A model generated the notes under the pieces. It ran no database searches and had not been told where the DNA came from. It saw only the letters and a list, made by a program, of their open reading frames with translations. Positions 6,417 through 48,347 of a stretch of DNA of 64,000 nucleotides are shown here, piece by piece. The stretch is from Gammaproteobacteria bacterium (GTDB lineage Bacteria > Pseudomonadota > Gammaproteobacteria > JBCCGL01), in the NCBI GenBank assembly GCA_965277715.1, contig OZ255836.1:1824001-1888000 (forward strand), read 5' to 3'. Made by a program: the position numbers and the translations under genes. Each line of letters starts with the position of its first letter. The first letter of the stretch is position 1.

Positions 6417-7811
6417 TCAGGGCTTTGCGCTGGCTCCCAGCAATTGGTTAACTTTTTCACTGAGGTTTTTCAAAAGGGTTGTGTTTTGCTGGATTTGCGC
6501 GTCTTTTTGGGTGAGTTTTGCTTCCAGCGCGATTATCTTCTGCTCTTTTAGTGCCAGCTTTTGATTTAACGCCTGAATTGAGGCCAGGGCTATACCGTCG
6601 CTATCCACTGTCGATATACGCCTTTTATCTGAACCCAGGCCAAACAGGTCAAAAAAGTCCTCTGCCATCGGGCCAATATGAGAAGCACCTGTGCCATCAT
6701 CTTTAAAGCGCCATTTCAAGATAGGCATATTCACCACAGCATCCAGAATGGAAAGCGGGTTAATTTCAGAAAAGTTTTCTTTCAGGGTACGGGATGATGA
6801 AGGGTTAAACGCAACTGCAGTGACCTCGCCCCGGATTAAAGCATCACCTGTTGGTGAGAGTGAAAACTCTACATTGCCATCAGAAAAGTCACCGGCCAGA
6901 AAACCACCAGCGGCAGTGAGTAATAGCCCTGTTACTCCCCCAGCACCAAATGTTTCACCTGCAGCACTCAATAATAGAGAACCTGGAGCTATACCATCTG
7001 ATTGGCCTATAAGCCACGTGTTACTGGTGTTGGTGTTATTCAGCAGAACCCTGCTGTTACTGTTAGTGCGTAGCTCCAGCAATGTGTCACCGGACCCCGC
7101 TACCCCGGTGGTTGTACTGGCGGTTTCCTCGACCAATATCCTTGCACCGCCATCGGTTGAGAACAGGTGTAAATCTGTCGTTGGGGTGTTGGTACCGAGG
7201 CCTATATCACCGGTATTTTCAATAACTAAGCTATTGTTGCCTGCGCCTGGCTGAATCCGAAAGGGCAGTAGACTGCTATTGGTCACATCGCGAATAAAAA
7301 AATTGCTTTCATTGCTACCTAAATCCCACGCCTGTGGGGTAAAGCCACTGCTACCGTTTTGTTCCAGGCGCACTGTCGGTGTATTGCCATCGACAACATG
7401 TACCTGGACAATCGCACTGCTGGTGCCAACACCAATATTACCGCTGCTGTTGACGCGCAAACTATCGGCAGGGGCGCCAGCATCGACGCGAAAAACCTGG
7501 CTATTCGCAGTAGAATCTTCAACAGCGAAGTAATTACTCCCACCATTGGCTGTATCGTTAAAAACAAAACGCCAGTCATTTGAGGGGAAGCTGGAACTAC
7601 TACTGGTATCGTCAAAATGAATACGCAGGTTGTTTTCTTTTAAGCGAAATGTATCAAAACCAAAATTTTCCCCATTGACGCAATCATTGCCCGTGCAGAG
7701 GCTGAATGTAATGATGGTGTCATCAAGATGCACAATATCGGCGTGTGCACTGGGTGTTATGGTAAGTAATATCAGCCACATCAGTGGGTTTTTTACTGTC
7801 TTTGTAAACAT
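6417..7811 (-). CDS. Secreted tail-fibre-like protein with a C-terminal intramolecular chaperone (peptidase S74) domain and coiled coil
   Basis: Signal peptide ...PSAHA. G(N/D)IG(V/L)GT repeats; SSRTLKEN...HIGPMAEDF...GIALASIQAL followed by a coiled coil. Confidence 0.8.
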   Translation of the reverse strand: MFTKTVKNPLMWLILLTITPSAHADIVHLDDTIITFSLCTGNDCVNGENFGFDTFRLKENNLRIHFDDTSSSSSFPSNDWRFVFNDTANGGSNYFAVEDSTANSQVFRVDAGAPADSLRVNSSGNIGVGTSSAIVQVHVVDGNTPTVRLEQNGSSGFTPQAWDLGSNESNFFIRDVTNSSLLPFRIQPGAGNNSLVIENTGDIGLGTNTPTTDLHLFSTDGGARILVEETASTTTGVAGSGDTLLELRTNSNSRVLLNNTNTSNTWLIGQSDGIAPGSLLLSAAGETFGAGGVTGLLLTAAGGFLAGDFSDGNVEFSLSPTGDALIRGEVTAVAFNPSSSRTLKENFSEINPLSILDAVVNMPILKWRFKDDGTGASHIGPMAEDFFDLFGLGSDKRRISTVDSDGIALASIQALNQKLALKEQKIIALEAKLTQKDAQIQQNTTLLKNLSEKVNQLLGASAKP

Positions 7812-7903: not shown

Positions 7904-8311
7904 TCACTGGTTGGACGCATCAGGCACTGCATTGCTGACGAAGTGGAACCTACCGCTTTCCACGACACCGACAGGCTCACCACGTGCAGCGCGTTGTGCT
8001 TCGCTTCTACCATCATTGAGAGGCTGTTTGACGGTGTGTGCAATTTCCACGCCGGGTAGCGGTGCACTGATTTGGTAAGTGTAGGTGCCCTCGGTTAGCG
8101 GTTCATCCACAAATATCAGGAGTGAGTCGGTCTGGAGGTAAAACCCGTTAGGGCCGGTGATAGTCAATTGCCGAACGTCAGGGTGATCGGTCTCGAACTG
8201 GATGCTGTAGTCATCTGTGGTGACAATGGTTTCGGCGTAAACCTGGGCTGGCGTTATCAGGGTGCAAGCCAACAGGGTTAAAAAGGAAGCAGCGCTAACA
8301 TGTATATTCAT
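7904..8311 (-). CDS. Small secreted hypothetical protein, beta-rich
   Basis: Signal-like N terminus (LLACTLITPAQVYA) and an upstream AGGT RBS-like site; co-oriented with its neighbours. Confidence 0.65.
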   Translation of the reverse strand: MNIHVSAASFLTLLACTLITPAQVYAETIVTTDDYSIQFETDHPDVRQLTITGPNGFYLQTDSLLIFVDEPLTEGTYTYQISAPLPGVEIAHTVKQPLNDGRSEAQRAARGEPVGVVESGRFHFVSNAVPDASNQ

Positions 8312-8458
8312 GGTGATAACCTACCTAATATTTAAGTTGACTTAGTTGAGTATAGCTAGAAAAACAAGCTGTACACTGAATGTGTAAATATTTTTGTTAC
8401 GCATTTTGATACGGTTCAAAGTGACGCTTATACAAATGTTGAGGGTAATAAGTTATTG

Positions 8459-10384
8459 CTACTTTTCAAAACGTTGTAGAAATAACCCCACCATTATGCC
8501 TTTGAGTAAGACAGTGCCCGCCTGGTTAGTCAGTAACGGATTGATGTCAGTCAGTGTATGTTTGAATACAGTTTCCATGTACGGTAGATCTAAATATTCC
8601 TGGGCCAGGTCTGATTGCTGTAATTGCTTTAGGCTGTCTCGTATTGCACTGCTGCTATGGCGTATTCGCATAATAATATCGGCGGCCTGTTTACCTTTCT
8701 GCTTATTCCATAAAAAACTATCGGGCATCAGGCCAGCCATGCCCCTTCGGATCAGCATTTTTTCCTGGCCACGCTGTGTGTATTGGTTCTCTGGAATACC
8801 AAAACAATACTCAATGATACGTTTGTCTGCGGTGGGGTCGCGAATCTCCACATCGTAGTGGGCGCCGAGTTCTGACCAAAAGGCGCCTGCGGCGTTGCCA
8901 GGGGCGAGCATGATGGATCGATACTCAGGATTGTGCTGCGATAGCAGCATCCGCTCTCCGTCAATCAACCGGTCTTTAATGCCTAAGGTAATCGCTACTT
9001 TTGGGTTTATTGCAGAGAACGCCATCCAGTTTTTATAGCCGCCGGTGATTAGTCGGTATTGCCGTGCCCAGGATAAGGGTAAAAGCGGGGAAATAACTTG
9101 GTTTTTCAATGTGGATATCCATGATTGTTTATTACATTTTTTCCATTTTATAACTTCCATTCGATAGGTTTCCCAGTTTCCCGTCTGGCGTAAACGTTTA
9201 AGCAGCTGCGCTCTGTTTCCGTTCCAGGACACAGTGGCATTGCCAAACTGTCCGGTCAATAGGGTGCCAATCCCCGCTTCTTTAAGCTTCTGTAAAATGG
9301 CAAGTATCCAGTACATATTGACCGCTGCATGCTCTGGCTCTTCTCGGATATGCAGTGTGGATGCCAGGCCAGCCAATGGAGTGGTTTCTGCCGCATCGAC
9401 ATAGTGAATATCCACTCCTTTCAGGTAGGGTTCCAACATGTGGATAAAAGCCTTTTCATCACCAAATTGGTGCGGATAAACACCGCCACGGGTGTCATAG
9501 AGCGGAATAGCGCTGTAGGCGGCTATTCTTTCGCTTGATTGTATGCCTTCATGGTTGGCCAGGGCTGTCACCGAGCTGGAGTCCAGGCCACCACTCAACG
9601 TGGTTGCCACGGGTTTTTTGCTGTGCAACCTGCACCTGACAGCCTCTGAGTAAATATCTCTAAATGCTTCTACATATTCTTCATCGGTATTAAAACGCAC
9701 ATCGGGTGCATCCATTGGGTTCCAGTACCTGCTTAGCTGGTGGCTTGTACGGGAAACGTTTAAACAATGGGCGGGCGGCAGGCGAGAAATATTTTGGTAG
9801 CATGTTTGGCCGTTATCGTCATCAACGTGGATCGTCACCAATAGGCGAGATAACATGTCCCTATTAGGGGCGATTGAAACAGCGGGTATTTTTAACAGTC
9901 CTTTTATCGATGATGAAAAACAGAAAAAATCGGCCCCCAGGTAATAGTAGAGACCTGTATTGCCAAAGTGATCGCGTGCAATAAACAGTGTTTGTTTATG
10001 TTTATCCCATACGGCGAATACCCAGTCACCCAAAAGGTACAATGGGCACCTGTCGCCCCATTTTAAATAAGCCTGAATCACTAAATAGCCATCAGTGACT
10101 GACACTCTATCCTGGGTTGGAATGGCCAGCTGCTGAAAAAGTGCGCTACGGTTATCCAGTCGAAAATGACCAATTAGCGTAAGCTGTTCAGTTTTATACG
10201 GGAGTCGTTCGTTGACTGATTCCGGTGTGTTATGGCGCAGACAGAAACCCATGCGCATATTGCCATCATGTGAAAAACCACTACCTTCTTTTCCCCAATA
10301 CGAGAGTGAGTGTTCTACCGCTTTCAACGGATCTGGAGAAGGATATTGACGCGCCCTTTGGAAATACCCAAATAGTGCTGACAT
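8459..10384 (-). CDS. Asparagine synthetase-like protein, probable lasso peptide cyclase (isopeptide-forming)
   Basis: The N terminus is MSALFG rather than MCG, so the Ntn glutaminase Cys is missing. RLDNR, ARDHFG, ATP-binding LSGGLDSS, LLTGQFG, RDPTADKR and C-terminal KG.QAAD; adjacent to a lasso precursor. Confidence 0.85.
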   Translation of the reverse strand: MSALFGYFQRARQYPSPDPLKAVEHSLSYWGKEGSGFSHDGNMRMGFCLRHNTPESVNERLPYKTEQLTLIGHFRLDNRSALFQQLAIPTQDRVSVTDGYLVIQAYLKWGDRCPLYLLGDWVFAVWDKHKQTLFIARDHFGNTGLYYYLGADFFCFSSSIKGLLKIPAVSIAPNRDMLSRLLVTIHVDDDNGQTCYQNISRLPPAHCLNVSRTSHQLSRYWNPMDAPDVRFNTDEEYVEAFRDIYSEAVRCRLHSKKPVATTLSGGLDSSSVTALANHEGIQSSERIAAYSAIPLYDTRGGVYPHQFGDEKAFIHMLEPYLKGVDIHYVDAAETTPLAGLASTLHIREEPEHAAVNMYWILAILQKLKEAGIGTLLTGQFGNATVSWNGNRAQLLKRLRQTGNWETYRMEVIKWKKCNKQSWISTLKNQVISPLLPLSWARQYRLITGGYKNWMAFSAINPKVAITLGIKDRLIDGERMLLSQHNPEYRSIMLAPGNAAGAFWSELGAHYDVEIRDPTADKRIIEYCFGIPENQYTQRGQEKMLIRRGMAGLMPDSFLWNKQKGKQAADIIMRIRHSSSAIRDSLKQLQQSDLAQEYLDLPYMETVFKHTLTDINPLLTNQAGTVLLKGIMVGLFLQRFEK

Positions 10385-10465
10385 CTACAAGACAAATAAT
10401 ACGTATAGCACCAAGCCTGCGCTCAACTTTAGTGCATCAGGCAAAGTACAAATCAGCTGAGTACC

Positions 10466-10495
10466 TTGCCCGTTCGTTGTTATTGAACGGGCCAA
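10466..10495 (-). terminator. Stem-loop between the precursor and cyclase genes
   Basis: GCCCGTTC-9 nt-GAACGGGC perfect 8-bp stem (10468-10492), about 15 nt downstream of the precursor stop. There is no strong U-tract on the transcribed strand, so it may stabilise or attenuate the mRNA rather than terminate it. Confidence 0.55.
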
Positions 10496-10508
10496 CAAAA
10501 TTGCGGAA

Positions 10509-10673
10509 TTAGCTGAGAAAACCACCATCCAGCCCACCTCCTGGCGTCGCTAAAGTGATTTGGTTTATATTGCCTAAATCCCTCAGTAAAGGGGAGTGGT
10601 ATTCTTTTTTTGTGGTTTTTTCAGCGCTGGAATCGGTTGAGGGGGTATTTTCATCAATATCTTGCTTCATCAT
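10509..10673 (-). CDS. Lasso peptide precursor, 54 aa: MMKQDIDENTPSTDSSAEKTTKKEYHSPLLRDLGNINQITL-ATPGGGLDGGFLS
   Basis: Hand-translated and absent from the ORF track. AAGAGG RBS; leader motif YxxPxL..LG.....T(-2); the core starts with Ala and has Asp at position 8. Confidence 0.85.
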   Translation of the reverse strand: MMKQDIDENTPSTDSSAEKTTKKEYHSPLLRDLGNINQITLATPGGGLDGGFLS

Positions 10674-10952
10674 AGTGCCTCTTACATAGGGGGTTTAGTC
10701 GTTTAGTAATCTTTCAATGTAAGTAAATAAACAAAGCTTATTATCTACACACAGAGTGGTTGCAATTAAGGATAGTATATTCTTTGAAAATAGTGCTCTA
10801 GCTCTAGCTTTATTGGGTACTTTTAGTGCCAATATGGAAGCTGCTGAAGCATACCAGAAGCAGTGTCGTTTTAAATATTTTTTGCTCGCTTTGGCAATGT
10901 GCCGCATTAATCGGTTCTAAGTTCTGCGTCCGGTTGAGTGAGTGTGGTTCCA

Positions 10953-13900
10953 TCATTCATTTAGCCAAGCCGAAGGTTTGCGCCACACCCGGACCATAAA
11001 AATGAGCAGTAAACCTAGCAACAGGTTGTCGATCACGGTGTAACTGCCACCACCACCCGCTTGGGTGACGGCAGGTTGGTTGGCTGCAATGGTTACGCTG
11101 GCGCCGGTAATGGTGGTGGTACTGGCACCATCATTAACCAGCGCACTCAGGGTCAGCGTGCCGGTCGTTGTACCTGCCGTTACCTGGGCGGTGTAGCGGC
11201 CATTACCGTTATCGGTTGTGGCTGTTATTGTGGTGTCTGCCACGCCGGTACCACTAATGGTTACTGTGGCGCCCAGCACCGGGTTGCTGCCGGCATCCAC
11301 CAGGTTCAAGGTTACTTGCGTGCTGCTGCTGCCGTCGGCGGGCAGTGATGTGATGCTGGAGGATAGCGTGCTTAAAGCCACATTGAGTACCCGGCTGGTA
11401 ACGCCACCTGGGTCGGTAATAACATTATTCGCCTCACCATCGGCATCGTTGGGGCCGCCATCGGTGATCGTTAGGCGTATGCAGCTATCGCCCTGCGTGA
11501 GCGCTGTCCGCCAACGGGTATCGGCCTGCCCAGGGCACAGGCCATTGGCCAGGCGCGCTGCAGATACCACGGTGTCTGTCATGCCGTTGGCATTGACGGT
11601 ACTTTGGTCAAAATCGACCCAATTGACCCGCGCTGGAAAGTTTGGCAGGCGGGTAGCCAGGTATTTGCGGTAAATGGGGTTAACCGGGATAGCGTTTGAC
11701 AGCGGAATGACGACATTGACCTGCTGACCCGTAGTGGGTAGGTTCAGGACTTCAAAATCGACGATGGCGGTTGGGTGCGATAGGCTGTCGGCGGGTAGTA
11801 TCACTGTGCCGCTGCTATCCACTGAGCCTTCGGTGACTGTTGCGTCAAAACGATTTGCCAGGCCGACAATTGCCGAGGCGGCAATTGTGCCCAGGCGCAG
11901 TGTAAGGCCGGGTTCGGTGGTGATAATTTCGCTGGTGTTAACTGCGTTGACGACGGGCAGAAAGCGGGCGTTGTTATTCTGTACATCAATAAAGCCGGGA
12001 ATCCGGTCACCATCCGGGTCCGCCAGGCCAGCCATGATATCCGGTATGCCATCATTATTGCTATCGGCAGTGGGGTTGTTTGAAAATAAGCTACTAGGCT
12101 CGACTATCAGCGCGCTACGACCACTGGCGCTATTGGTGCCATCGCTGACCTGTACCCGCAATTCGTAGAGACCGGCGGTAGGTACCGCGAGGGTGAAACT
12201 ATCGGTAGTGCCTGGTGGCACGGTGACGGCAGTGGTCGCGCTCCAGTCATAGCTTATGGTGTCTCCACTATTGCCATCGGTTACCACGGCAGTCAATGTC
12301 AGTATGCTGCTACCGGCAATAACATTGGAGACGGTCTGGCCATTCTGACTAATGCGAATAGTAACGGTGGGGGCGATATTGCCGGAGACTACCTGGATCG
12401 TCTGGGATACCTCGCCGCTGGCGATGACCCGGTCGGTTGTAGGGTTGATCGCGCTTATATTTTGCGCAAAGGGGGCCGCACCCGTATTCAGGCTAACTGA
12501 CAAGCTGCCGGGGTTGGCACCGGCGGTAAAAGAGGTGGTGCCGCTAATCGACCCGGCTGCCAGTGTGATGGTGCCGTTGCTGGTGGCGCTGCCGCTGGTA
12601 TCGGTACTGACCGTAAACGGTACGGTGATAGCGGTGCCGGTGTCGACGGGGTTACCGTTGAGCTGAGCGTTGATGTCGATGGTAGAACCTGTGCCAACTG
12701 TCGGGTTGGTGGCGGAAACAGATACCAGCGGCACGATATTGACTGTTTGTTGTGCAGCACCACCAGCGGGCCAGTTTCCGGTACTGTCGAGGGCCAGCCA
12801 CCAGAGGTCATTGGCGCCGGGGTAGAGCAATAGATCACCACTGCTGTTAACGAGGACTGATGTGCAAACGCTGGCAAAATTGGCGGGTAGAATGCTGCCC
12901 GTGCAGGCACCGCGGCGGTAGTAGGCAGTGCGCGAGGTGTTGTTGCTTGCGGTGACGCCGTGCGGGGCGGCAGTGACAATCGCGACTGAGGCCAGTGTCA
13001 GTGGTGTGGTGAGTGTGATAACGGGGCGGGTACTGCCAATAAAATCGACGGACCCCAGGTCTAACGGGTCGACGCCCAGTCGTACATCCACTACATCAGG
13101 TATGCCATTGGCATTGGCGTCGGTGCTGTTGTTGACACTGTTAGTGGTGCCGCTGAGGTAGCGTTCGACAGCATCTGTGATGCCGTCATTGTCTGTGTCT
13201 GTGGTGGTTGCAGTAGACGCTGTATCCAGGTTGTCAGACAGGCCATCGCCGTCGGTGTCTTCGCCCGCGTTGCCCAGTACCACCTCGATATTGGTGGTGA
13301 TCGAGGCCTGGTTGCCGTTACCAGTGGTATCTTCGGCCAGATTGGCGGCGATACCGATACTGGCTGTACCGGCGCTACCCACAGTAATGTTCACGGTATA
13401 ACTGTTATTGCTACCGGAAAAATTATTCAGCGTGGCATTACTGACACTAATATCGCTTGCATCAAACCCAACGACACCTTCACTGAAGGTAATCGTGGCC
13501 ATCACTGTACCAGACGCGATAATACGTGCGCTGTTGGTGGCGATTGATACGCTGGGACGGGTAATGTCGTAGTTGATGCTGCGTTGAGTGGCCGCTGTGT
13601 TGCCATTACCGGCAACATCCTGAGCGACAGCGGCGGCGACATCGAGTGTAACCGTGCCCTCGGTCGTGGGGGTAATGTCTGCTGTGTAGGTCGTGTTACT
13701 GCCCGCAAAGTTAGCGACTGTGGCGTTGCCCGCATTGATGTCACTCAGCGCAAACCCGGTGACGTTTTCGGTAAAGGTAAACGTGGCGGTAAATGTGGTA
13801 TTGACGTCACTACTGGGGGTGGTAATGGTCACGCCGGGATTGGTAATGTCGTAGTTCATGCTGCGTTGAGTGGCCGCTGTGTTGCCATTACCGGCAACAT

Positions 13901-16900
13901 CTTGAGCGACGGCGGCGGCGACATCGAGTGTAACCGTGCCCTCGGTTGTGGGGGTAATGTCTGCTGTGTAGGTCGTGTTACTGCCCGCAAAGTTAGCGAC
14001 TGTGGCGTTGCCCGCATTGATGTCACTCAGCGCAAACCCGGTGACGTTTTCGGTAAAGGTAAACGTGGCGGTAAATGTGGTATTGACGTCACTACTGGGG
14101 GTGGTAATGGTCACGCCGGGATTGGTAATGTCGTAGTTCATGCTGCGTTGGGTGGCCGCTGTGTTGCCATTACCGGCAACATCTTGAGCGACGGCGGCGG
14201 CGACATCGAGTGTAACCGTGCCCTCGGTCGTGGGGGTAATGTCTGCTGTGTAGGTCGTGTTACTGCCCGCAAAGTTAGTGACTGTGGCGTTGCCCGCATT
14301 GATGTCACTCAGCGCAAACCCGGTGACGTTTTCGGTAAAGGTAAACGTGGCGGTAAACGCGGTATTGACGTTGCTGCTGGGGGTTGTGATGGTAACGCCA
14401 GGGGCGGTGTTATCGACCGAGAAGGCTGTGCCAGTGGCCGTGCCAGCAGAAATATTGCTGCTGCTGCGCGCCGTATTGGCGGCTATCCCGATGCCTAGCG
14501 TACCGTTACCGGAGATGCCACTGATAGTCACCGTGGGTGTGGCAGTGGTGCCATTTTGTACCGACACAGTACCGCTGGCGCCGCCGGTTGTCACCAGGTT
14601 GATAGCCGATACCTGCAAATTGACATCTAATGCATTGGTATAGGTCAACTGGTACGTCACTGGCCCGCCATTGGTTAGCGAGGCACTTGGATTGCCGACA
14701 CTAATGGTGGGAGTTTGTAAGGGGTTTGATACGACCAGATTATCACTGGCGGCGGGGCCTGTGATAGCTAGGCTGTTGATGGTGCCAGTGATACCGCTGG
14801 TGGTATTGGTTGCGGTAACGCCTGCGCTGTTAGCAGGTACTGTCAGGGTGGCGTTAAACGTACAGGAAGCACTGGCAGCCAGGCTGCCACCAGTAAATGT
14901 TAGGGTGTCCGTACCACTGAGTGAGGAACCTGTACCACAGATATTATTTATTGGCAGGCCACTAGCGACCAGCCCGGTTATCGCTGCGCCCAGATTGTTG
15001 GTGAAGGCGATATTGCTGGCAGCGCTACTGGTATTCAGGTTGCTCAGGGTAAATGCCAGTGTGACTGGGGTGCCTGCTGTCACAGGGTCATCGGTAAAGG
15101 TGGCGCTGAGTGATAACAGTGCTGAATTGACGGTCAGTTGTGCCGTGGCGGGAGGGAGTGACAGGTTGCTACTGCCTACCATGGCAGATAGATTGCCGGT
15201 GGTACTGGCATAGGTGGTAGAGGCCGCTCCCGCCGGTACTCGCACAGTCACATCAAAGCTGCAGGTTTCCCCAGCTAACAAATTACCACCGCTAAATATC
15301 AGGGGAGTTGTTCCAACAATAAGAGAGCCACTACCACAGGGGGTGGTGGGTAACGGTGCAACGACTGTGAGGCCACTGACCACTGTGTTAAGGCTATGGC
15401 TAAATACCATCCCGGTAGCGGCCAGTGTCGACTGGCTATTGTTGATAGTATAGCGCAGGGTTGTGGTATCACCGGGTATCACCGGGCTGTTGAGAAATGT
15501 TTTGCTGAATACCAGTGCGGCGATATCCAGAGTATCCTGTGCAGGGTTGCCACTGACGGCAATGCCGCTGGCTGTTGCGGTAATATTGCTGGTGGTATTG
15601 GTGAAGCTGCCACTGACAGCGGCAGCAGGCACGTTAAGTGTGATGGAAAAAGTACAGCTTGCGCCAGGCGCGAGAGATCCCGCTGTAAAGTTCAGTGTAG
15701 TGGTGCCACTAATTGAAGAGCCTGTACCACAAATATTGTTCATTGGCAGGCCGCTGGCCTCCAGGCCTGCGAGTGTCGTCGATAAGTTGTTGCTAAAGGT
15801 AATTGCGGTGGCACTGGTAGGTGCCTGAGCGCTGTGGCTGATAGTGTACTGGAGGGTCGCGGTGGCGCCGGGCAATACGGGATCGTTGATGAACAACCCG
15901 GTGAGTGTTGGCGCGCCCACTACGGTTAAAGCGGCGCTGGTAGTGCCGCCGGTTTGGCTATTGCCAGTAACGGTTGCGGTCAGCGTTTCGGTCGTTAGAG
16001 TAAACGTACCGGCAGCGGCGCCCAGTGGTACAGTCAGGCCGACATTAAAGGTACAGTTTGTACCCGCAGCCAACTCACCGTTGGCAATTCCTAGAGTAAT
16101 ATTGCCGTTGACGGTCGTAGTAGTGGCGTTGGAACTGCTGCCACAAAATCCAATGGTGGGTAAGGCGCTGGCTGTAACGCCGTTTATAAAGCTATCAAGG
16201 TTGGTGGTAAAGGCAATATTGCTGGTAGTACTCGTGCTGTTGCTGCTTATCGTAAACTCCAACATCGTTGTGCCACCACCACTCACCGGGCTGTTCAGAA
16301 AGCGGGCACTGATACTCGGTGCGCTACTGACGGTCAGCGAATCGCGGGATGGGCTACCCACAAAAGAGCTGCCGCCAATACTCGCGCTCAGTGCGCTGGT
16401 GGTATTAACATGGTTGCCAGTGGCGGCGCCAGCGGGCACTTGCAACGTGACATTGAAGGTACAGCTACCACCATTGGCGGCCAGGCTGCCATTTGACAGG
16501 GTGAGTGTACTGCTGCCAGACAGGGTCGAACCCGATCCGCAGATATCACCCGCTGGTAACCCGGTGGCCACCAACCCTGAGAGAACGGTGCTTAGATTGT
16601 CGGTAAAGGTGATACTGGTGGCGTTGGCATTTCTGTCGTTATTTGTCAGTGTGAATGACAGTACAACGGTGCCCCCGGCAGGTGTTGGGTCATTGGTAAA
16701 GTCCTGGGTAAAAACAATTGTTTCGGTGTTGACTGTCAATATTGCGCCTGCCATGCCGCTGGAAACGGGAGCAAAACCGCTTGCACTGCTGGCAGCATTC
16801 AATGCACCGCTCACGTTATTCAGTGTACCTGTCGATGTTGCGCGCACATCGACACTCACTGTGCAGGTGGCGCCCGCATTCACTGCACCGCCTGTAAAAC

Positions 16901-17591
16901 TAATTGAGTTTGAACCGGGCAACGCAGTAACCCCACCCGGGCTGCAGCTAGTCGATGCATTGGAGGGGCTGGCGATCTCCATACCCGCTGGTAATGTGTC
17001 ACTAAATGAGGCAGAAAAAACCTGCACCGTATTGGCACTGTTGTCGATGGTAAAGGTCAGTGTGCTACGGGCGCCCAGTGTCACCGTGGCGGGTGAAAAG
17101 TGTTTACTGAAGCCTGGTCTTGCGGCATTCACAATAAGATTATCCGTGGCGGTACCACTGTTACCTGCGCTGGAGGTGAGGTTTCCGGTGGTATTGGTGT
17201 GGGTGCCTGCTACGGCACTGGTCACATTGACACTGATAGTACAGGTATTATTGGCCGCGAGGCGGCCATTGCTCAGGGTGATGGTGCTACCACCGTTCGG
17301 CGCGCTGATCGTTGTGTCGAGGCAGGTGGTTGCGACGGCGGCAGGGGTGGCAATGGTAACACCTGCTGGCAATGTATCGGTAAACGCCAGACTGGTGGCG
17401 GCATTGGAGGAGGCGCTGTTATTGATGGTAAAGATCAGCGGAGTCAAACCGCCAGGGCCAATCGTATCTGGCGAGAAGGTTTTGCTGAAAACCGGCGCAA
17501 TGGCGCTGGCGGTGGATGAGAAACACACTACAATCGCGGCCAGTAGCAACGTTTGCAAATGTTTATTGGTTCGTTTAGATAAAAAGTTCAT
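10953..17591 (-). CDS. Giant secreted adhesin-like surface protein: DUF11-like Cys-containing beta repeats, Ig-like repeats, TSP3-like Ca-binding motifs, choice-of-anchor-U-like domain, invasin-like Big domain, GlyGly-CTERM
   Basis: Signal peptide from MNFLSK...STASA. About 7 repeats of FSK.F.P..LTFTI.N...C...C; DxDGDG.xD motifs; LTITDGGPNDADG..N..I.DPGG; C-terminal GGGGS + hydrophobic helix + RVWRK. Confidence 0.85.
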   Translation of the reverse strand: MNFLSKRTNKHLQTLLLAAIVVCFSSTASAIAPVFSKTFSPDTIGPGGLTPLIFTINNSASSNAATSLAFTDTLPAGVTIATPAAVATTCLDTTISAPNGGSTITLSNGRLAANNTCTISVNVTSAVAGTHTNTTGNLTSSAGNSGTATDNLIVNAARPGFSKHFSPATVTLGARSTLTFTIDNSANTVQVFSASFSDTLPAGMEIASPSNASTSCSPGGVTALPGSNSISFTGGAVNAGATCTVSVDVRATSTGTLNNVSGALNAASSASGFAPVSSGMAGAILTVNTETIVFTQDFTNDPTPAGGTVVLSFTLTNNDRNANATSITFTDNLSTVLSGLVATGLPAGDICGSGSTLSGSSTLTLSNGSLAANGGSCTFNVTLQVPAGAATGNHVNTTSALSASIGGSSFVGSPSRDSLTVSSAPSISARFLNSPVSGGGTTMLEFTISSNSTSTTSNIAFTTNLDSFINGVTASALPTIGFCGSSSNATTTTVNGNITLGIANGELAAGTNCTFNVGLTVPLGAAAGTFTLTTETLTATVTGNSQTGGTTSAALTVVGAPTLTGLFINDPVLPGATATLQYTISHSAQAPTSATAITFSNNLSTTLAGLEASGLPMNNICGTGSSISGTTTLNFTAGSLAPGASCTFSITLNVPAAAVSGSFTNTTSNITATASGIAVSGNPAQDTLDIAALVFSKTFLNSPVIPGDTTTLRYTINNSQSTLAATGMVFSHSLNTVVSGLTVVAPLPTTPCGSGSLIVGTTPLIFSGGNLLAGETCSFDVTVRVPAGAASTTYASTTGNLSAMVGSSNLSLPPATAQLTVNSALLSLSATFTDDPVTAGTPVTLAFTLSNLNTSSAASNIAFTNNLGAAITGLVASGLPINNICGTGSSLSGTDTLTFTGGSLAASASCTFNATLTVPANSAGVTATNTTSGITGTINSLAITGPAASDNLVVSNPLQTPTISVGNPSASLTNGGPVTYQLTYTNALDVNLQVSAINLVTTGGASGTVSVQNGTTATPTVTISGISGNGTLGIGIAANTARSSSNISAGTATGTAFSVDNTAPGVTITTPSSNVNTAFTATFTFTENVTGFALSDINAGNATVTNFAGSNTTYTADITPTTEGTVTLDVAAAVAQDVAGNGNTAATQRSMNYDITNPGVTITTPSSDVNTTFTATFTFTENVTGFALSDINAGNATVANFAGSNTTYTADITPTTEGTVTLDVAAAVAQDVAGNGNTAATQRSMNYDITNPGVTITTPSSDVNTTFTATFTFTENVTGFALSDINAGNATVANFAGSNTTYTADITPTTEGTVTLDVAAAVAQDVAGNGNTAATQRSINYDITRPSVSIATNSARIIASGTVMATITFSEGVVGFDASDISVSNATLNNFSGSNNSYTVNITVGSAGTASIGIAANLAEDTTGNGNQASITTNIEVVLGNAGEDTDGDGLSDNLDTASTATTTDTDNDGITDAVERYLSGTTNSVNNSTDANANGIPDVVDVRLGVDPLDLGSVDFIGSTRPVITLTTPLTLASVAIVTAAPHGVTASNNTSRTAYYRRGACTGSILPANFASVCTSVLVNSSGDLLLYPGANDLWWLALDSTGNWPAGGAAQQTVNIVPLVSVSATNPTVGTGSTIDINAQLNGNPVDTGTAITVPFTVSTDTSGSATSNGTITLAAGSISGTTSFTAGANPGSLSVSLNTGAAPFAQNISAINPTTDRVIASGEVSQTIQVVSGNIAPTVTIRISQNGQTVSNVIAGSSILTLTAVVTDGNSGDTISYDWSATTAVTVPPGTTDSFTLAVPTAGLYELRVQVSDGTNSASGRSALIVEPSSLFSNNPTADSNNDGIPDIMAGLADPDGDRIPGFIDVQNNNARFLPVVNAVNTSEIITTEPGLTLRLGTIAASAIVGLANRFDATVTEGSVDSSGTVILPADSLSHPTAIVDFEVLNLPTTGQQVNVVIPLSNAIPVNPIYRKYLATRLPNFPARVNWVDFDQSTVNANGMTDTVVSAARLANGLCPGQADTRWRTALTQGDSCIRLTITDGGPNDADGEANNVITDPGGVTSRVLNVALSTLSSSITSLPADGSSSTQVTLNLVDAGSNPVLGATVTISGTGVADTTITATTDNGNGRYTAQVTAGTTTGTLTLSALVNDGASTTTITGASVTIAANQPAVTQAGGGGSYTVIDNLLLGLLLIFMVRVWRKPSAWLNE
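13561..14406. repeat. Three near-identical tandem 282-bp (94-aa) Ig-like repeats inside the giant protein
   Basis: The same motif recurs at 13561, 13843 and 14125 (period 282), with only a few substitutions between copies. Confidence 0.95.
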
Positions 17592-17776
17592 TGTGTTTTC
17601 TCTACCAGTACCGTTATTGGCCTGATTTACCGGGTTTCCTTTGCTCGCAATAGCGGGGGAATCCCTGTGGTTCATCAAAATCATAGTATAAAATTCCACA
17701 ATTGCAGTGGGTATTCGCTATATTTGTGACGGAAATGCAGTGATAATAGTCACTTAACAGAACACCCAGTCCACAT

Positions 17777-25413: not shown

Positions 25414-25836
25414 GTGTGCAAAAAATGGCTCAAATCGGTGCTTCCCCCGCTACGGGCGCCTAAACTTTGCGCCTGGAAAACAGGGCTACCTAAAGCACTG
25501 GAACAACGACTACGCGAACTGGTAAACAACTCACAAACAGGTCAGCTCTTCGATCTAAGCCCCTACAATCACCGATATAAAACAAATACGATGGACGAGG
25601 GAAAAGTTACAAGCTTATTCAGACGATTCAAACGACGAGACCTGAATATATCCCCTCATCGGCTACGCCACTCATTTGCAACCAATTTTGCAAAAAATGG
25701 ACACATAAGACTACTGCAACATGCATTAGGGCATACCAGCTTGAAGACGACAATGATCTATATAACGCCAGATATAAGCGATCTAACTGCGCATATGGAT
25801 CAGCTTGAAGTGCCGTTTTTGTTGAAAAAAGTTTGA
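25414..25836 (+). pseudogene. Truncated tyrosine recombinase/integrase (C-terminal catalytic part only)
   Basis: SPHRLRHSFAT (HxxR), LQHALGHTSLKTTMIY (catalytic H and Y). The N-terminal domain and first Arg box are absent; AT-rich; next to the tRNA-Lys 3' end. Confidence 0.75.
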
Positions 25837-46439: not shown

Positions 46440-48347
46440 GTGAATTCCCCAAAGCTTTCGTACAGAACTGAAATTGACGGCTTGCGAGCAATAGCTGTTA
46501 TCAGCGTCATTCTTTATCACGTCCAATATGCAAAATTTGGAAGAGTTTGGTTTGAAGGTGGCTTCATTGGTGTGGACATCTTTTTTGTAATCAGTGGCTA
46601 TCTGATTACTCGCATTATTCTTTCGGAACTGCAAACGAAAGACTCCTTTAGCTTTCTAAACTTTTATGAGCGAAGAGCTCGGCGCATATTGCCAATGCTT
46701 TTTGCAGTGATTTTTCTTTCTATGCCATTTGCCTGGGTAATTCTCAGTCCAAGTGACCTAATCGAGCTATCCCAAAGCATCATTTCTTCACTTTTCTTTG
46801 GGTCTAATTTCTTTTTCTATTTTAATACCACTGAGTATGGTGCTGACAACGCTCTTTTAAAGCCTTTTCTTCACACTTGGAGTTTAGGTGTCGAAGAGCA
46901 GTTTTACCTGGTTTTTCCGATCATTGCGATCATTACATTCAAGTACTTCAGAGCGCATTTTTTGACGATCATAGTGGCTCTGTCTCTTGTTAGTTTGCAA
47001 TTTGCAGAGCTAATGGAAGGTCGAAACGCTGATCTGAACTTCTACCTTCCTTTTAGTCGTTTTTGGGAATTGGCTGTTGGTTCTGCGCTCGCGTACAGAG
47101 AGCTTAATTACAAGCCATCAGAAGAAGGATTTGTTAACCGGGTTCTCCCAATGGTTGGTTTGTACTTGGTCACGTACAGTGTCTTGTTTTTTAATGATAA
47201 GACTCCTCATCCAGGTTTTCATACCATCGTTCCAATTTTGGGTGTGGCGCTAATTATTGGGTTTGCCTCAAAAGATGAGTTGGTTGGAAAGATTTTAGGT
47301 AGTAAGCCGTTTGTATGGGTCGGATTAATTAGCTACTCCGCTTATCTTTGGCACTTCCCAATTATGGCATTTATGAGGTCTGCATCATCGAAGATTTATC
47401 TTTCTTCTAAGGATTCAGGTGCCATTATTGTTGCAATTTTTTTTATGTCTTTTTTTTCATATCTTCTCATTGAGCGTCCCTTCAGAAACAGACAGAATTT
47501 GACGGCAAAAAAGTTTTGGGTGATCATGTTTTTTGCATCTTTAACAATCTTAGCTGCAGCGTTTTCTGTAATACAACAAGATGGTTTTCCGAATCGTTAT
47601 CCAAAATATCTGCAAAAATCCTCGTTCGACGATAGGTTCGCAAATTTAGAAATTTTCGACAAATGTCATAGGCTTAGAGGCGAATTTGCAGTTGAGAGAG
47701 ATGAATTTTGTTCTTTGGGCGAGGGCTCGAATGACGTATTCCTTATAGGTGACAGCCATATGGTCTCTATCGCTTTCAAACTAATGGAGGGTCTTCAACA
47801 AAGAGACGGAAAATTATTTCTTATGACGAGAGCCGGCAGTTTATTTGGAAGAAACAAAAAGCTTGACATTGCTCGCTTGGATTATTTGAAGGGCGTTGCA
47901 GACAGCACGGTTATTTTTGGTGGGTATGCCCACAGAGAAAATAGTGAATTTTTTAATTCCGTTCGCGATCAGTACGTGGATTTATTCAATGGATTGGAAG
48001 AGAGAAATAACAGCGTTGTGATCATTTACCCCATCCCATCAACCAACATACAGGCAAGAGGATTGAAGTTTGAATATATCGTCAATGGAAGGTTACTTGA
48101 TAAAACTTCTGCCCTGCAGACGTTTGAGAGTGAGTCAGCGGATGCGTACAGTTTTTATGATTCGTTCTCCAATGACAATATCTCCCGTATTTACCCAAAA
48201 GATTTTCTATGTGATGAGTCAACGTGCTTTGGTGTAAAGGATGGGCGGATACTTATTAGCGATATAGCTCACCCCTCGAATCTAACGGCAGAATGGATTG
48301 TGAATAAATTGTTTTCTGAATTGCATTGGGATGTGTTGGACATTTAA
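46440..48347 (+). CDS. O-acyltransferase (Acyltransferase_3 + SGNH-like domain; OafA/OatA-like)
   Basis: IDGLRA, GVDIFFVISG, R.RRI.P, HTWSLGVEEQFY, SYS.YLWH, GDSH and D..H; noticeably AT-rich. Confidence 0.9.
   Translation: MNSPKLSYRTEIDGLRAIAVISVILYHVQYAKFGRVWFEGGFIGVDIFFVISGYLITRIILSELQTKDSFSFLNFYERRARRILPMLFAVIFLSMPFAWVILSPSDLIELSQSIISSLFFGSNFFFYFNTTEYGADNALLKPFLHTWSLGVEEQFYLVFPIIAIITFKYFRAHFLTIIVALSLVSLQFAELMEGRNADLNFYLPFSRFWELAVGSALAYRELNYKPSEEGFVNRVLPMVGLYLVTYSVLFFNDKTPHPGFHTIVPILGVALIIGFASKDELVGKILGSKPFVWVGLISYSAYLWHFPIMAFMRSASSKIYLSSKDSGAIIVAIFFMSFFSYLLIERPFRNRQNLTAKKFWVIMFFASLTILAAAFSVIQQDGFPNRYPKYLQKSSFDDRFANLEIFDKCHRLRGEFAVERDEFCSLGEGSNDVFLIGDSHMVSIAFKLMEGLQQRDGKLFLMTRAGSLFGRNKKLDIARLDYLKGVADSTVIFGGYAHRENSEFFNSVRDQYVDLFNGLEERNNSVVIIYPIPSTNIQARGLKFEYIVNGRLLDKTSALQTFESESADAYSFYDSFSNDNISRIYPKDFLCDESTCFGVKDGRILISDIAHPSNLTAEWIVNKLFSELHWDVLDI

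Follow-up and report, generated by a model that had tools for sequence, protein, structure and literature searches.

Lasso peptides of the paeninodin and pseudomycoidin type are the closest described counterparts of the gene pair reported here. Their loci comprise a precursor gene (A), a cyclase gene (C), split B1 and B2 genes, an HPrK-like kinase gene (K), a PF14907 transferase gene (N), and an ABC exporter gene (D) (PMC6993621, PMC9266682; these and the papers below are cited from excerpts). The recognition elements (RREs) for peptides made by the ribosome and modified after translation (RiPPs) that occur in lasso systems bind the leader motif [Y/W]xxPx[L/V/I/F/A] (PMC13381572), and a C-terminal Ser is a conserved kinase site in paeninodin-type lasso peptides (PMC9266682). 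Unmodified pseudomycoidin, without a bulky tail residue or a tail modification, was isolated unthreaded, and a single Leu-to-Phe change restored threading (PMC6993621). Here, I describe a putative lasso precursor gene and its neighbouring cyclase gene in a stretch of 64,000 nucleotides (the window) from a Gammaproteobacteria bacterium (assembly GCA_965277715.1, contig OZ255836.1, positions 1,824,001 to 1,888,000; coordinates below are those of the window unless another locus is named). In summary, the locus is a real but ordinary type of lasso system in an atypical, possibly decaying layout. The two genes form a genuine A and C pair of the kinase-associated, paeninodin-type clade. That the pair belongs to a split cluster with B1 and B2 elsewhere is the favoured reading, to which I would give an even chance.

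The cyclase and the precursor family

The cyclase gene (8459..10384, minus strand) encodes a lasso-type macrolactam cyclase of 641 amino acids. The protein is an asparagine synthetase homologue with an intact SGGLDS ATP-binding loop, and its N-terminus reads MSALFG, with Ser2 at the position of the nucleophilic Cys of AsnB, as the original prediction, made from the sequence alone, had noticed. An asparagine synthetase homologue without the Cys nucleophile has the traits by which a macrolactam cyclase is recognised. The top NCBIfam match was NF033535 (lasso isopeptide bond-forming cyclase) with 375 bits. The cut-off of this narrow model is 525 bits, and all six relatives tested also score below it; a Paenibacillus cyclase from a full B1/B2/kinase/PF14907/ABC cluster reaches 366 bits. 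The AsnB model TIGR01536 gave 160.8 bits at a cut-off of 267.1; the protein has neither the score nor the N-terminal Cys of an AsnB. In a FastTree phylogeny, whose deep forks are weak, the cyclase is placed in the kinase-associated (paeninodin-type) lasso cyclase clade and not with AsnB, the grouping which the original prediction had named as its own counter-case. The link to paeninodin, first drawn from the C-terminal Ser of the peptide, holds by clade, as the relatives of the cyclase carry HPrK-like kinases and PF14907 transferases.

The cyclase looks intact in the window. An alignment with 35 relatives has 38 invariant columns, 37 of which it retains, and 104 columns conserved at 90% or more, of which it retains 93 (the fourth lowest of 36 sequences); its retention exceeds that of the cyclases of L001 and L002, two loci from metagenome-assembled genomes (MAGs), of which L001 sits in a B1/B2/kinase cluster. 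No extra domain is fused to it; Pfam found only Asn_synthase (PF00733) and GATase domains, and the 641 residues compare with 644 positions in the family model. Among 7999 sequences scored, 1566 were homologues at E <= 1e-30, the nearest non-self ones being 41-43% identical. A scan by exact peptides gave only three loci with 31-37% identity, and a metagenome scan gave one 1.4-kb contig with B1-B2-C. None of 185,579 species genomes has an ArgS more than 60% identical to that encoded in the window. With no close relatives, there is no syntenic relative for comparison.

Near-identical DNA was found in runs labelled as sponge metagenomes from three further studies. The contigs of four runs (X1, X4, X5, and X7) were compared over 8200..11000, where X1, which is probably the source, is identical to the window. 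The precursor gene (10509..10670, minus strand) encodes 53 amino acids plus the stop codon from the second of two in-frame ATG codons; from the first (10671-10673), the product would have 54 residues and the open reading frame (ORF) would span 10509..10673. Since the first ATG is missing from the contigs of X4, X5, and X7 while the second (10668-10670) is retained, the start at 10670 is most likely. A Shine-Dalgarno-like AAGAGG (10678..10683, minus strand) lies 7 nt ahead of the second ATG and is unchanged in the other runs. The 54-residue ORF with its ribosome-binding site, its YHSPLL/Thr(-2) leader, and its 13-residue core had all been described in the original prediction, and each element was found as stated. 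It had also been called unannotated. However, the 53-residue product from the second Met is present in public protein collections (NCBI, ENA, and Logan sources), on a contig of 4,294,796 bp, and thus the precursor is not unannotated everywhere.

The leader is encoded by 10551..10670 (minus strand). The segment before the core reads EYHSPLLRDLGNINQIT-L, with the YHSPLL motif included and Thr at position -2, and thus has the [Y/W]xxPx[L/V/I] motif and the Thr(-2) of a lasso precursor. The C-terminal part of the product reads ...KKEYHSPLLRDLGNINQIT-L-ATPGGGLDGGFLS, where ATPGGGLDGGFLS is the predicted core of 13 residues (10512..10550, minus strand). An Ala1-Asp8 ring with a five-residue tail, GGFLS, is predicted; Asp8 lies within positions 7-9, where Asp or Glu is found in lasso cores, and Ser13 gives the core the C-terminal Ser of paeninodin-type precursors.

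A precursor profile was built from three peptides (those of the window, L001, and L002) and searched against 5.8 billion proteins. Of 13 candidates, 12 had E <= 0.01, with values from 1.9e-11 to 4.3e-25. In the 12-member alignment, E, Y, P, L, G, Thr(-2), core Asp8, and core Ser13 are invariant, and the interval from Thr to Asp is free of gaps in all 12 members. This constant spacing supports the eight-membered ring and bears out the A1-D8 register proposed earlier. The first core residue is A, N, G, or T, and the cores have 13-15 residues, the shortest being that of the window. In L001 and L002, the small ORFs that align with the window peptide lie directly upstream of the homologous cyclases, so that conserved precursors of the kind that the prediction proposed to look for were seen in two other genomes. 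The window precursor is 36-37% identical to these two over the full length and 48% identical over the aligned 54%. Its leader is about 40% identical to those of its relatives, yet every family-invariant residue is kept. Judged by this alignment, the window peptide is a member of a small conserved precursor family and no chance ORF. Together with the NF033535 match, the family agrees with the view that a lasso-type precursor stands beside a lasso-type cyclase. Short Ser-terminated cores are usual in the cyclase clade: SGPMYGAGDGGVYS is encoded beside a kinase gene in L105, GDSDGLDSGGGGLS is found in L141, and further ones of 14 and 15 residues are found in L100 and L162.

Helper genes in the window and in related genomes

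That no RRE (B1), B2 peptidase, kinase, or exporter is encoded near the pair had been noted before, and this was found to be true of the whole window. A Pfam scan of 35 window ORFs detected none of B1/RRE (PF05402), B2 (PF13471), an HPrK-like kinase, PF14907, and an ABC exporter; neither B1 nor B2 shares a cluster with the pair within the 64 kb. Hidden Markov models (HMMs) of the helper families, built iteratively from related loci and checked with Pfam on samples, matched no window ORF of at least 60 residues. When 11 proteins of the L001, L002, and L004 clusters were searched against the window by tblastn, the best E value was 0.03, and no remnant of any of the B1, B2, K, N, and D genes was found. 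The match at 0.03 falls in an AT3/SGNH acyltransferase gene and was rejected as a helper-gene remnant. No HPrK-like kinase was recognised in the window by its HMM, and the kinase queries gave tblastn E values above 2. A 70-residue ORF at 10695..10907 was considered as a hidden B1 gene and rejected, having no family match and lying in a region that is replaced in other strains. The B1 HMM also takes three long proteins of a larger PqqD-containing family, and because of this contamination B1 calls were not used alone. These proteins of about 260-380 residues (L105, 8034..8816; L114, 146..1291; L131, 12252..13385) match the B1 HMM with E values of about 1e-141 to 1e-155 and appear to form a separate PqqD-containing family adjoining lasso cyclases.

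Is the absence of B genes common in this clade? An alignment-based scan for cyclases gave 79 loci; after removal of a duplicate and of the shorter fragments, 76 with a full-length cyclase, among them the window, were used. Of these 76, 57 have B1 and/or B2 at the cyclase locus, in most cases accompanied by an HPrK-like kinase and frequently by PF14907 and an ABC exporter, which is the layout of paeninodin/pseudomycoidin-type clusters (PMC6993621, PMC9266682). Another 15 have no B gene, but their flanks of less than 5 kb are too short to decide. Four loci, namely the window, L098, L003, and L129, have no B gene despite at least 5 kb on both sides, and in the FastTree tree these are scattered (four changes for four rows). 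As an aside from the same loci, single ORFs of L102 (13449..15161), L103 (4478..6205), and L148 (14520..16145) match both the B2 and the PF14907-type HMMs, which points to B2-nucleotidyltransferase fusions in clusters of Chloroflexota and Armatimonadota.

Five genomes with an orphan cyclase were taken for a genome-wide search (L098, L003, L110, L121, and L163, the last three having one flank of less than 5 kb). PF13471 was found above the cut-off in all five, at another locus, while among 14 control genomes it was matched in two and above the cut-off in one. Six stretches around the distal B2 genes were inspected, reaching up to 10 kb on each side in three cases and ended by contig ends in the other three. 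All six contain B2, three contain B1, kinase genes occur at two of the loci and ABC genes at three, and none of the six stretches contains a cyclase. Pfam supported the distal B2 calls in 5/5 cases and the B1 calls in 3/3, and the kinases match Hpr_kinase_C below the cut-off. No precursor was recognised by the distal B2 loci or by the L003 cyclase. On a closed 5.03-Mb chromosome (Caldilineaceae, G002), the single cyclase match lies at 0.637 Mb and the only B2 gene at 1.95 Mb, in a B2-B1-kinase-ABC operon. Another orphan-cyclase genome has three full-length cyclases, several cyclase fragments, and one B2 gene.

In this clade, with a distal B2 gene in 5/5 genomes, a cyclase without neighbouring B genes is no sign that the genome lacks them. 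The original prediction had left the choice between maturation by distant genes and a different mechanism. The former part agrees with the five genomes, while the latter is not needed, as orphan cyclases recur. The literature searched yielded no study devoted to lasso cyclases at orphan or split loci, and the only mention is a remark in the excerpted part of PMC6993621. An Acidobacteriota MAG (L098, 10001..12169, and G001:C35) has two tandem cyclase genes, the first of which is directly followed by a precursor-like ORF (11993..12169). The same contig carries a B2 gene at a distance of about 48 kb, and another contig has a further split cyclase.

Alternative readings of the bare pair

If the pair belongs to a split cluster, the leader would most likely be bound by a PqqD-like B1 protein and cut by a transglutaminase-like B2 protein, both encoded elsewhere in the 4.29-Mb chromosome, because both the YxxPxL motif recognised by RREs and Thr(-2) are still present in it. 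In the next step, the cyclase would activate Asp8 by adenylation and link it to the newly exposed amine of Ala1, giving a 13-residue macrolactam with a calculated [M+H]+ of 1130.55. A kinase, if encoded elsewhere, may phosphorylate the C-terminal Ser. Phe11 and Leu12 would be the only plugs in the GGFLS tail, and therefore the product may unthread easily.

Several observations weigh against this reading. The location of B1 and B2 elsewhere in this genome is presumed by analogy with other genomes. The branch of the cyclase is long and isolated (0.99; median, 0.35) and has no supported sister. Only the window peptide ends at Ser13; the other 11 family members extend one or two residues further, and the L001 precursor does so although a kinase is present in its cluster. 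Since Ser13 is not terminal in 11 of the 12 members, its role as a kinase site is uncertain, and whether the precursor family has a kinase site or a C-terminal trimming step is unclear. The upstream non-coding stretch presumed to hold the promoter (10735..10966, no strand assigned) is replaced or shortened in X4, X5, and X7, so that about 230 nt upstream of the precursor gene are not conserved between strains; a sigma-70-like promoter was not found there, and the cyclase ATG is not preceded by an evident Shine-Dalgarno sequence. The cyclase is intact in X4 but frameshifted in X5 and X7, which come from two other studies, that is, in two of the three other populations. In both, 16 nt (9815..9830, minus strand) between two copies of TGACGAT are missing, and the frame shifts after residue 185. 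The protein cluster of the cyclase holds pieces of 202 and 418 residues, both from one 29-kb contig. Four single-nucleotide polymorphisms in the cyclase gene are common to X4, X5, and X7 relative to the window, and three of them are non-synonymous (H25R, H278R, and K413Q). These fit relaxed selection, although the number is tiny.

Much of this would also be expected if the pair were a relic, that is, if the genome had no B1 or B2 and the A and C genes were the remnant of a paeninodin-type cluster, yielding no mature product and disappearing by drift in a lineage that lives with a host. The deletion between the TGACGAT repeats, the 3:1 ratio of non-synonymous to synonymous changes, the variable upstream region without a promoter-like site, and the lack of accessory genes or remnants within 64 kb all speak for it. 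In addition, a B gene is present at the locus of each of the nearest relatives of the cyclase (L149, L086, L085, L087, and L088), both B1 and B2 in the case of L149 and L086, so that the bare state is derived. In contrast, both genes are intact in the window and in X4, the precursor coding region is the same in all four runs from the second ATG onwards, the leader keeps all family-invariant residues at about 40% identity, and the cyclase keeps all but one of the invariant columns. A relic is a serious alternative, though an unlikely one. From the few populations compared, the cyclase may be drifting and the locus decaying. The frameshifted alleles clearly make the cyclase locus dispensable, and the pair is thus unlikely to be a key factor in the symbiosis with the sponge.

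A third possibility is that the pair works without B proteins. Ala1 would be set free by a housekeeping protease and the ring closed by the cyclase alone, which would make a two-gene pathway for a lasso or branched-cyclic peptide. According to the excerpts of PMC6993621, PsmC forms the macrolactam from the precursor or the bare core without B1 and B2, as was seen for pseudomycoidin in E. coli, and the authors point to a cyanobacterial cluster without B genes; the window cyclase is in the same kinase-associated clade, and its gene is adjacent to the precursor gene, with both intact. However, the leader still has Thr(-2) and the motif bound by RREs, for which such a route has no need, all five orphan-cyclase genomes tested have B2 elsewhere, the pseudomycoidin cluster itself encodes B1 and B2 (PMC6993621), and the frameshift in the sister populations argues against an important product. 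I consider this route improbable. Should the genome prove to lack any B1 or B2, the pair might be a self-sufficient lasso pathway of two genes for a 13-residue peptide with the shortest tail yet proposed (five residues), which is likewise an outside chance. If true, the B-independent pseudomycoidin experiment would have a parallel in nature, found in an uncultured sponge symbiont.

The remaining idea that this is no RiPP locus and that an AsnB-type amidotransferase lies beside a chance reading frame, as might be thought from the 'asparagine synthase' labels of its relatives in public sources, the PF00733 and GATase domains that are all Pfam sees, and the amidotransferases that are its best solved relatives, is hardly credible and already contradicted by the replacement of Cys2 by Ser, an NF033535 score more than twice the AsnB score, the 57 of 76 clade members beside B1/B2, and the 11 ORF homologues with lasso hallmarks, two of which are next to cyclases.

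Surroundings of the pair and comparison with known systems

A hairpin lies between the precursor and cyclase genes (10468..10492, minus strand), as had been noted before. It starts 16 nt past the stop codon of the precursor gene and has a G+C-rich stem of 8 bp (GCCCGTTC/GAACGGGC) and a loop of 9 nt. The 136-nt spacer folds with z = -2.2 relative to shuffled sequences. The hairpin has no T-run and is thus not a canonical terminator; terminator calling did not report it.

The pair is surrounded by genes for a 2248-residue repeat adhesin, an S74 chaperone-domain protein, and an FG-GAP/ASPIC protein, and the housekeeping genes of the window include those for PriA, ArgS, PurE/K, transketolase, RpoD, PutA, and others. 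The adhesin, a surface protein (10953..17699, minus strand), has three near-identical tandem units of about 94 residues (...ITTPSSDVNT(A/T)FTATFTFTENVTGFALSDINAGNATV...) at 13.5-14.5 kb; the last 13 nt of its gene and the stretch downstream are replaced in other strains (joint 10880 to 10966). The S74 protein (6417..7811, minus strand) is a secreted protein of 464 residues with a Peptidase_S74 intramolecular-chaperone domain of the tail-spike/endosialidase type and a C-terminal coiled coil, and it adjoins the FG-GAP/ASPIC protein on the chromosome. A fragment of a phage-type integrase (140 residues; 25414..25836, plus strand) follows ArgS and a SPOR-domain gene about 15 kb from the lasso pair and is a possible scar of a mobile element. 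The AT3 acyltransferase-SGNH fusion gene (46440..48347, plus strand) lies in a 2-kb stretch of low G+C content (0.416, compared with about 0.52) and may have been acquired.

What does the pair add to the known systems? It adds a rare precursor family, with 12 members in 5.8 billion proteins, and very short Gly-rich cores at the lower size limit of lasso peptides. In this clade, a cyclase with or without its precursor can sit far from B1, B2, and the kinase, as in the five genomes tested; on the closed chromosome the distance is 1.3 Mb. Genome mining that demands B and C genes at the same place will overlook such split lasso systems or label them wrongly.

The pair resembles the paeninodin/pseudomycoidin-type systems in several respects. 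The cyclases are of the same clade, and a Paenibacillus B1/B2/K/N/D locus is in the same tree. The YxxPxL and Thr(-2) leader and the predicted joining of Ala1 to an Asp side chain are shared, and the core ends in Ser, the residue phosphorylated by these kinases (PMC9266682, PMC6993621). In contrast, A and C stand without B1, B2, K, N, or D in the 64 kb of the window. The core is 13 residues long, whereas that of pseudomycoidin reaches at least residue 23 (PMC6993621), and the leader motif begins with Tyr instead of the Trp that is typical of Bacillota paeninodin-like leaders (PMC13381572).

The split systems of the five genomes (G001-G005) are similar in having no B1 or B2 within 10 kb of the cyclase. 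They differ in that a distal B2 locus was found, alone or together with B1, kinase, and ABC genes. Next to the G002 cyclase, no precursor could be recognised, whereas in the window A sits with C. The closest counterparts of the precursor are those of L001/L117, a verrucomicrobial MAG of Pedosphaera, and L002, which are homologous, share TL-A...D-G and Ser13, and precede their cyclases in the same A-then-C order; the cyclases are 37% identical. In L001, unlike in the window, B2, B1, a kinase, and a GDSL-like gene stand upstream, with PF14907 downstream, while L002 has PF14907 and an ABC exporter, and the cores of both have 15 residues and do not end in Ser.

The original prediction took the core to be shorter than known ones. 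However, huascopeptin, a lasso peptide of class II having a Gly1-Asp7 ring, which comes from an actinomycete according to the title of the cited paper, also has a core of 13 residues in the excerpted text (PMC12427821), and sister cores in the cyclase clade have 14-15 residues. The window core ties with huascopeptin and is thus not shorter than all known cores. The two differ in their division, as huascopeptin has a seven-membered ring and a six-residue tail, whereas an eight-membered ring and a five-residue tail are predicted here. Such a combination would be at the extreme for lasso peptides.

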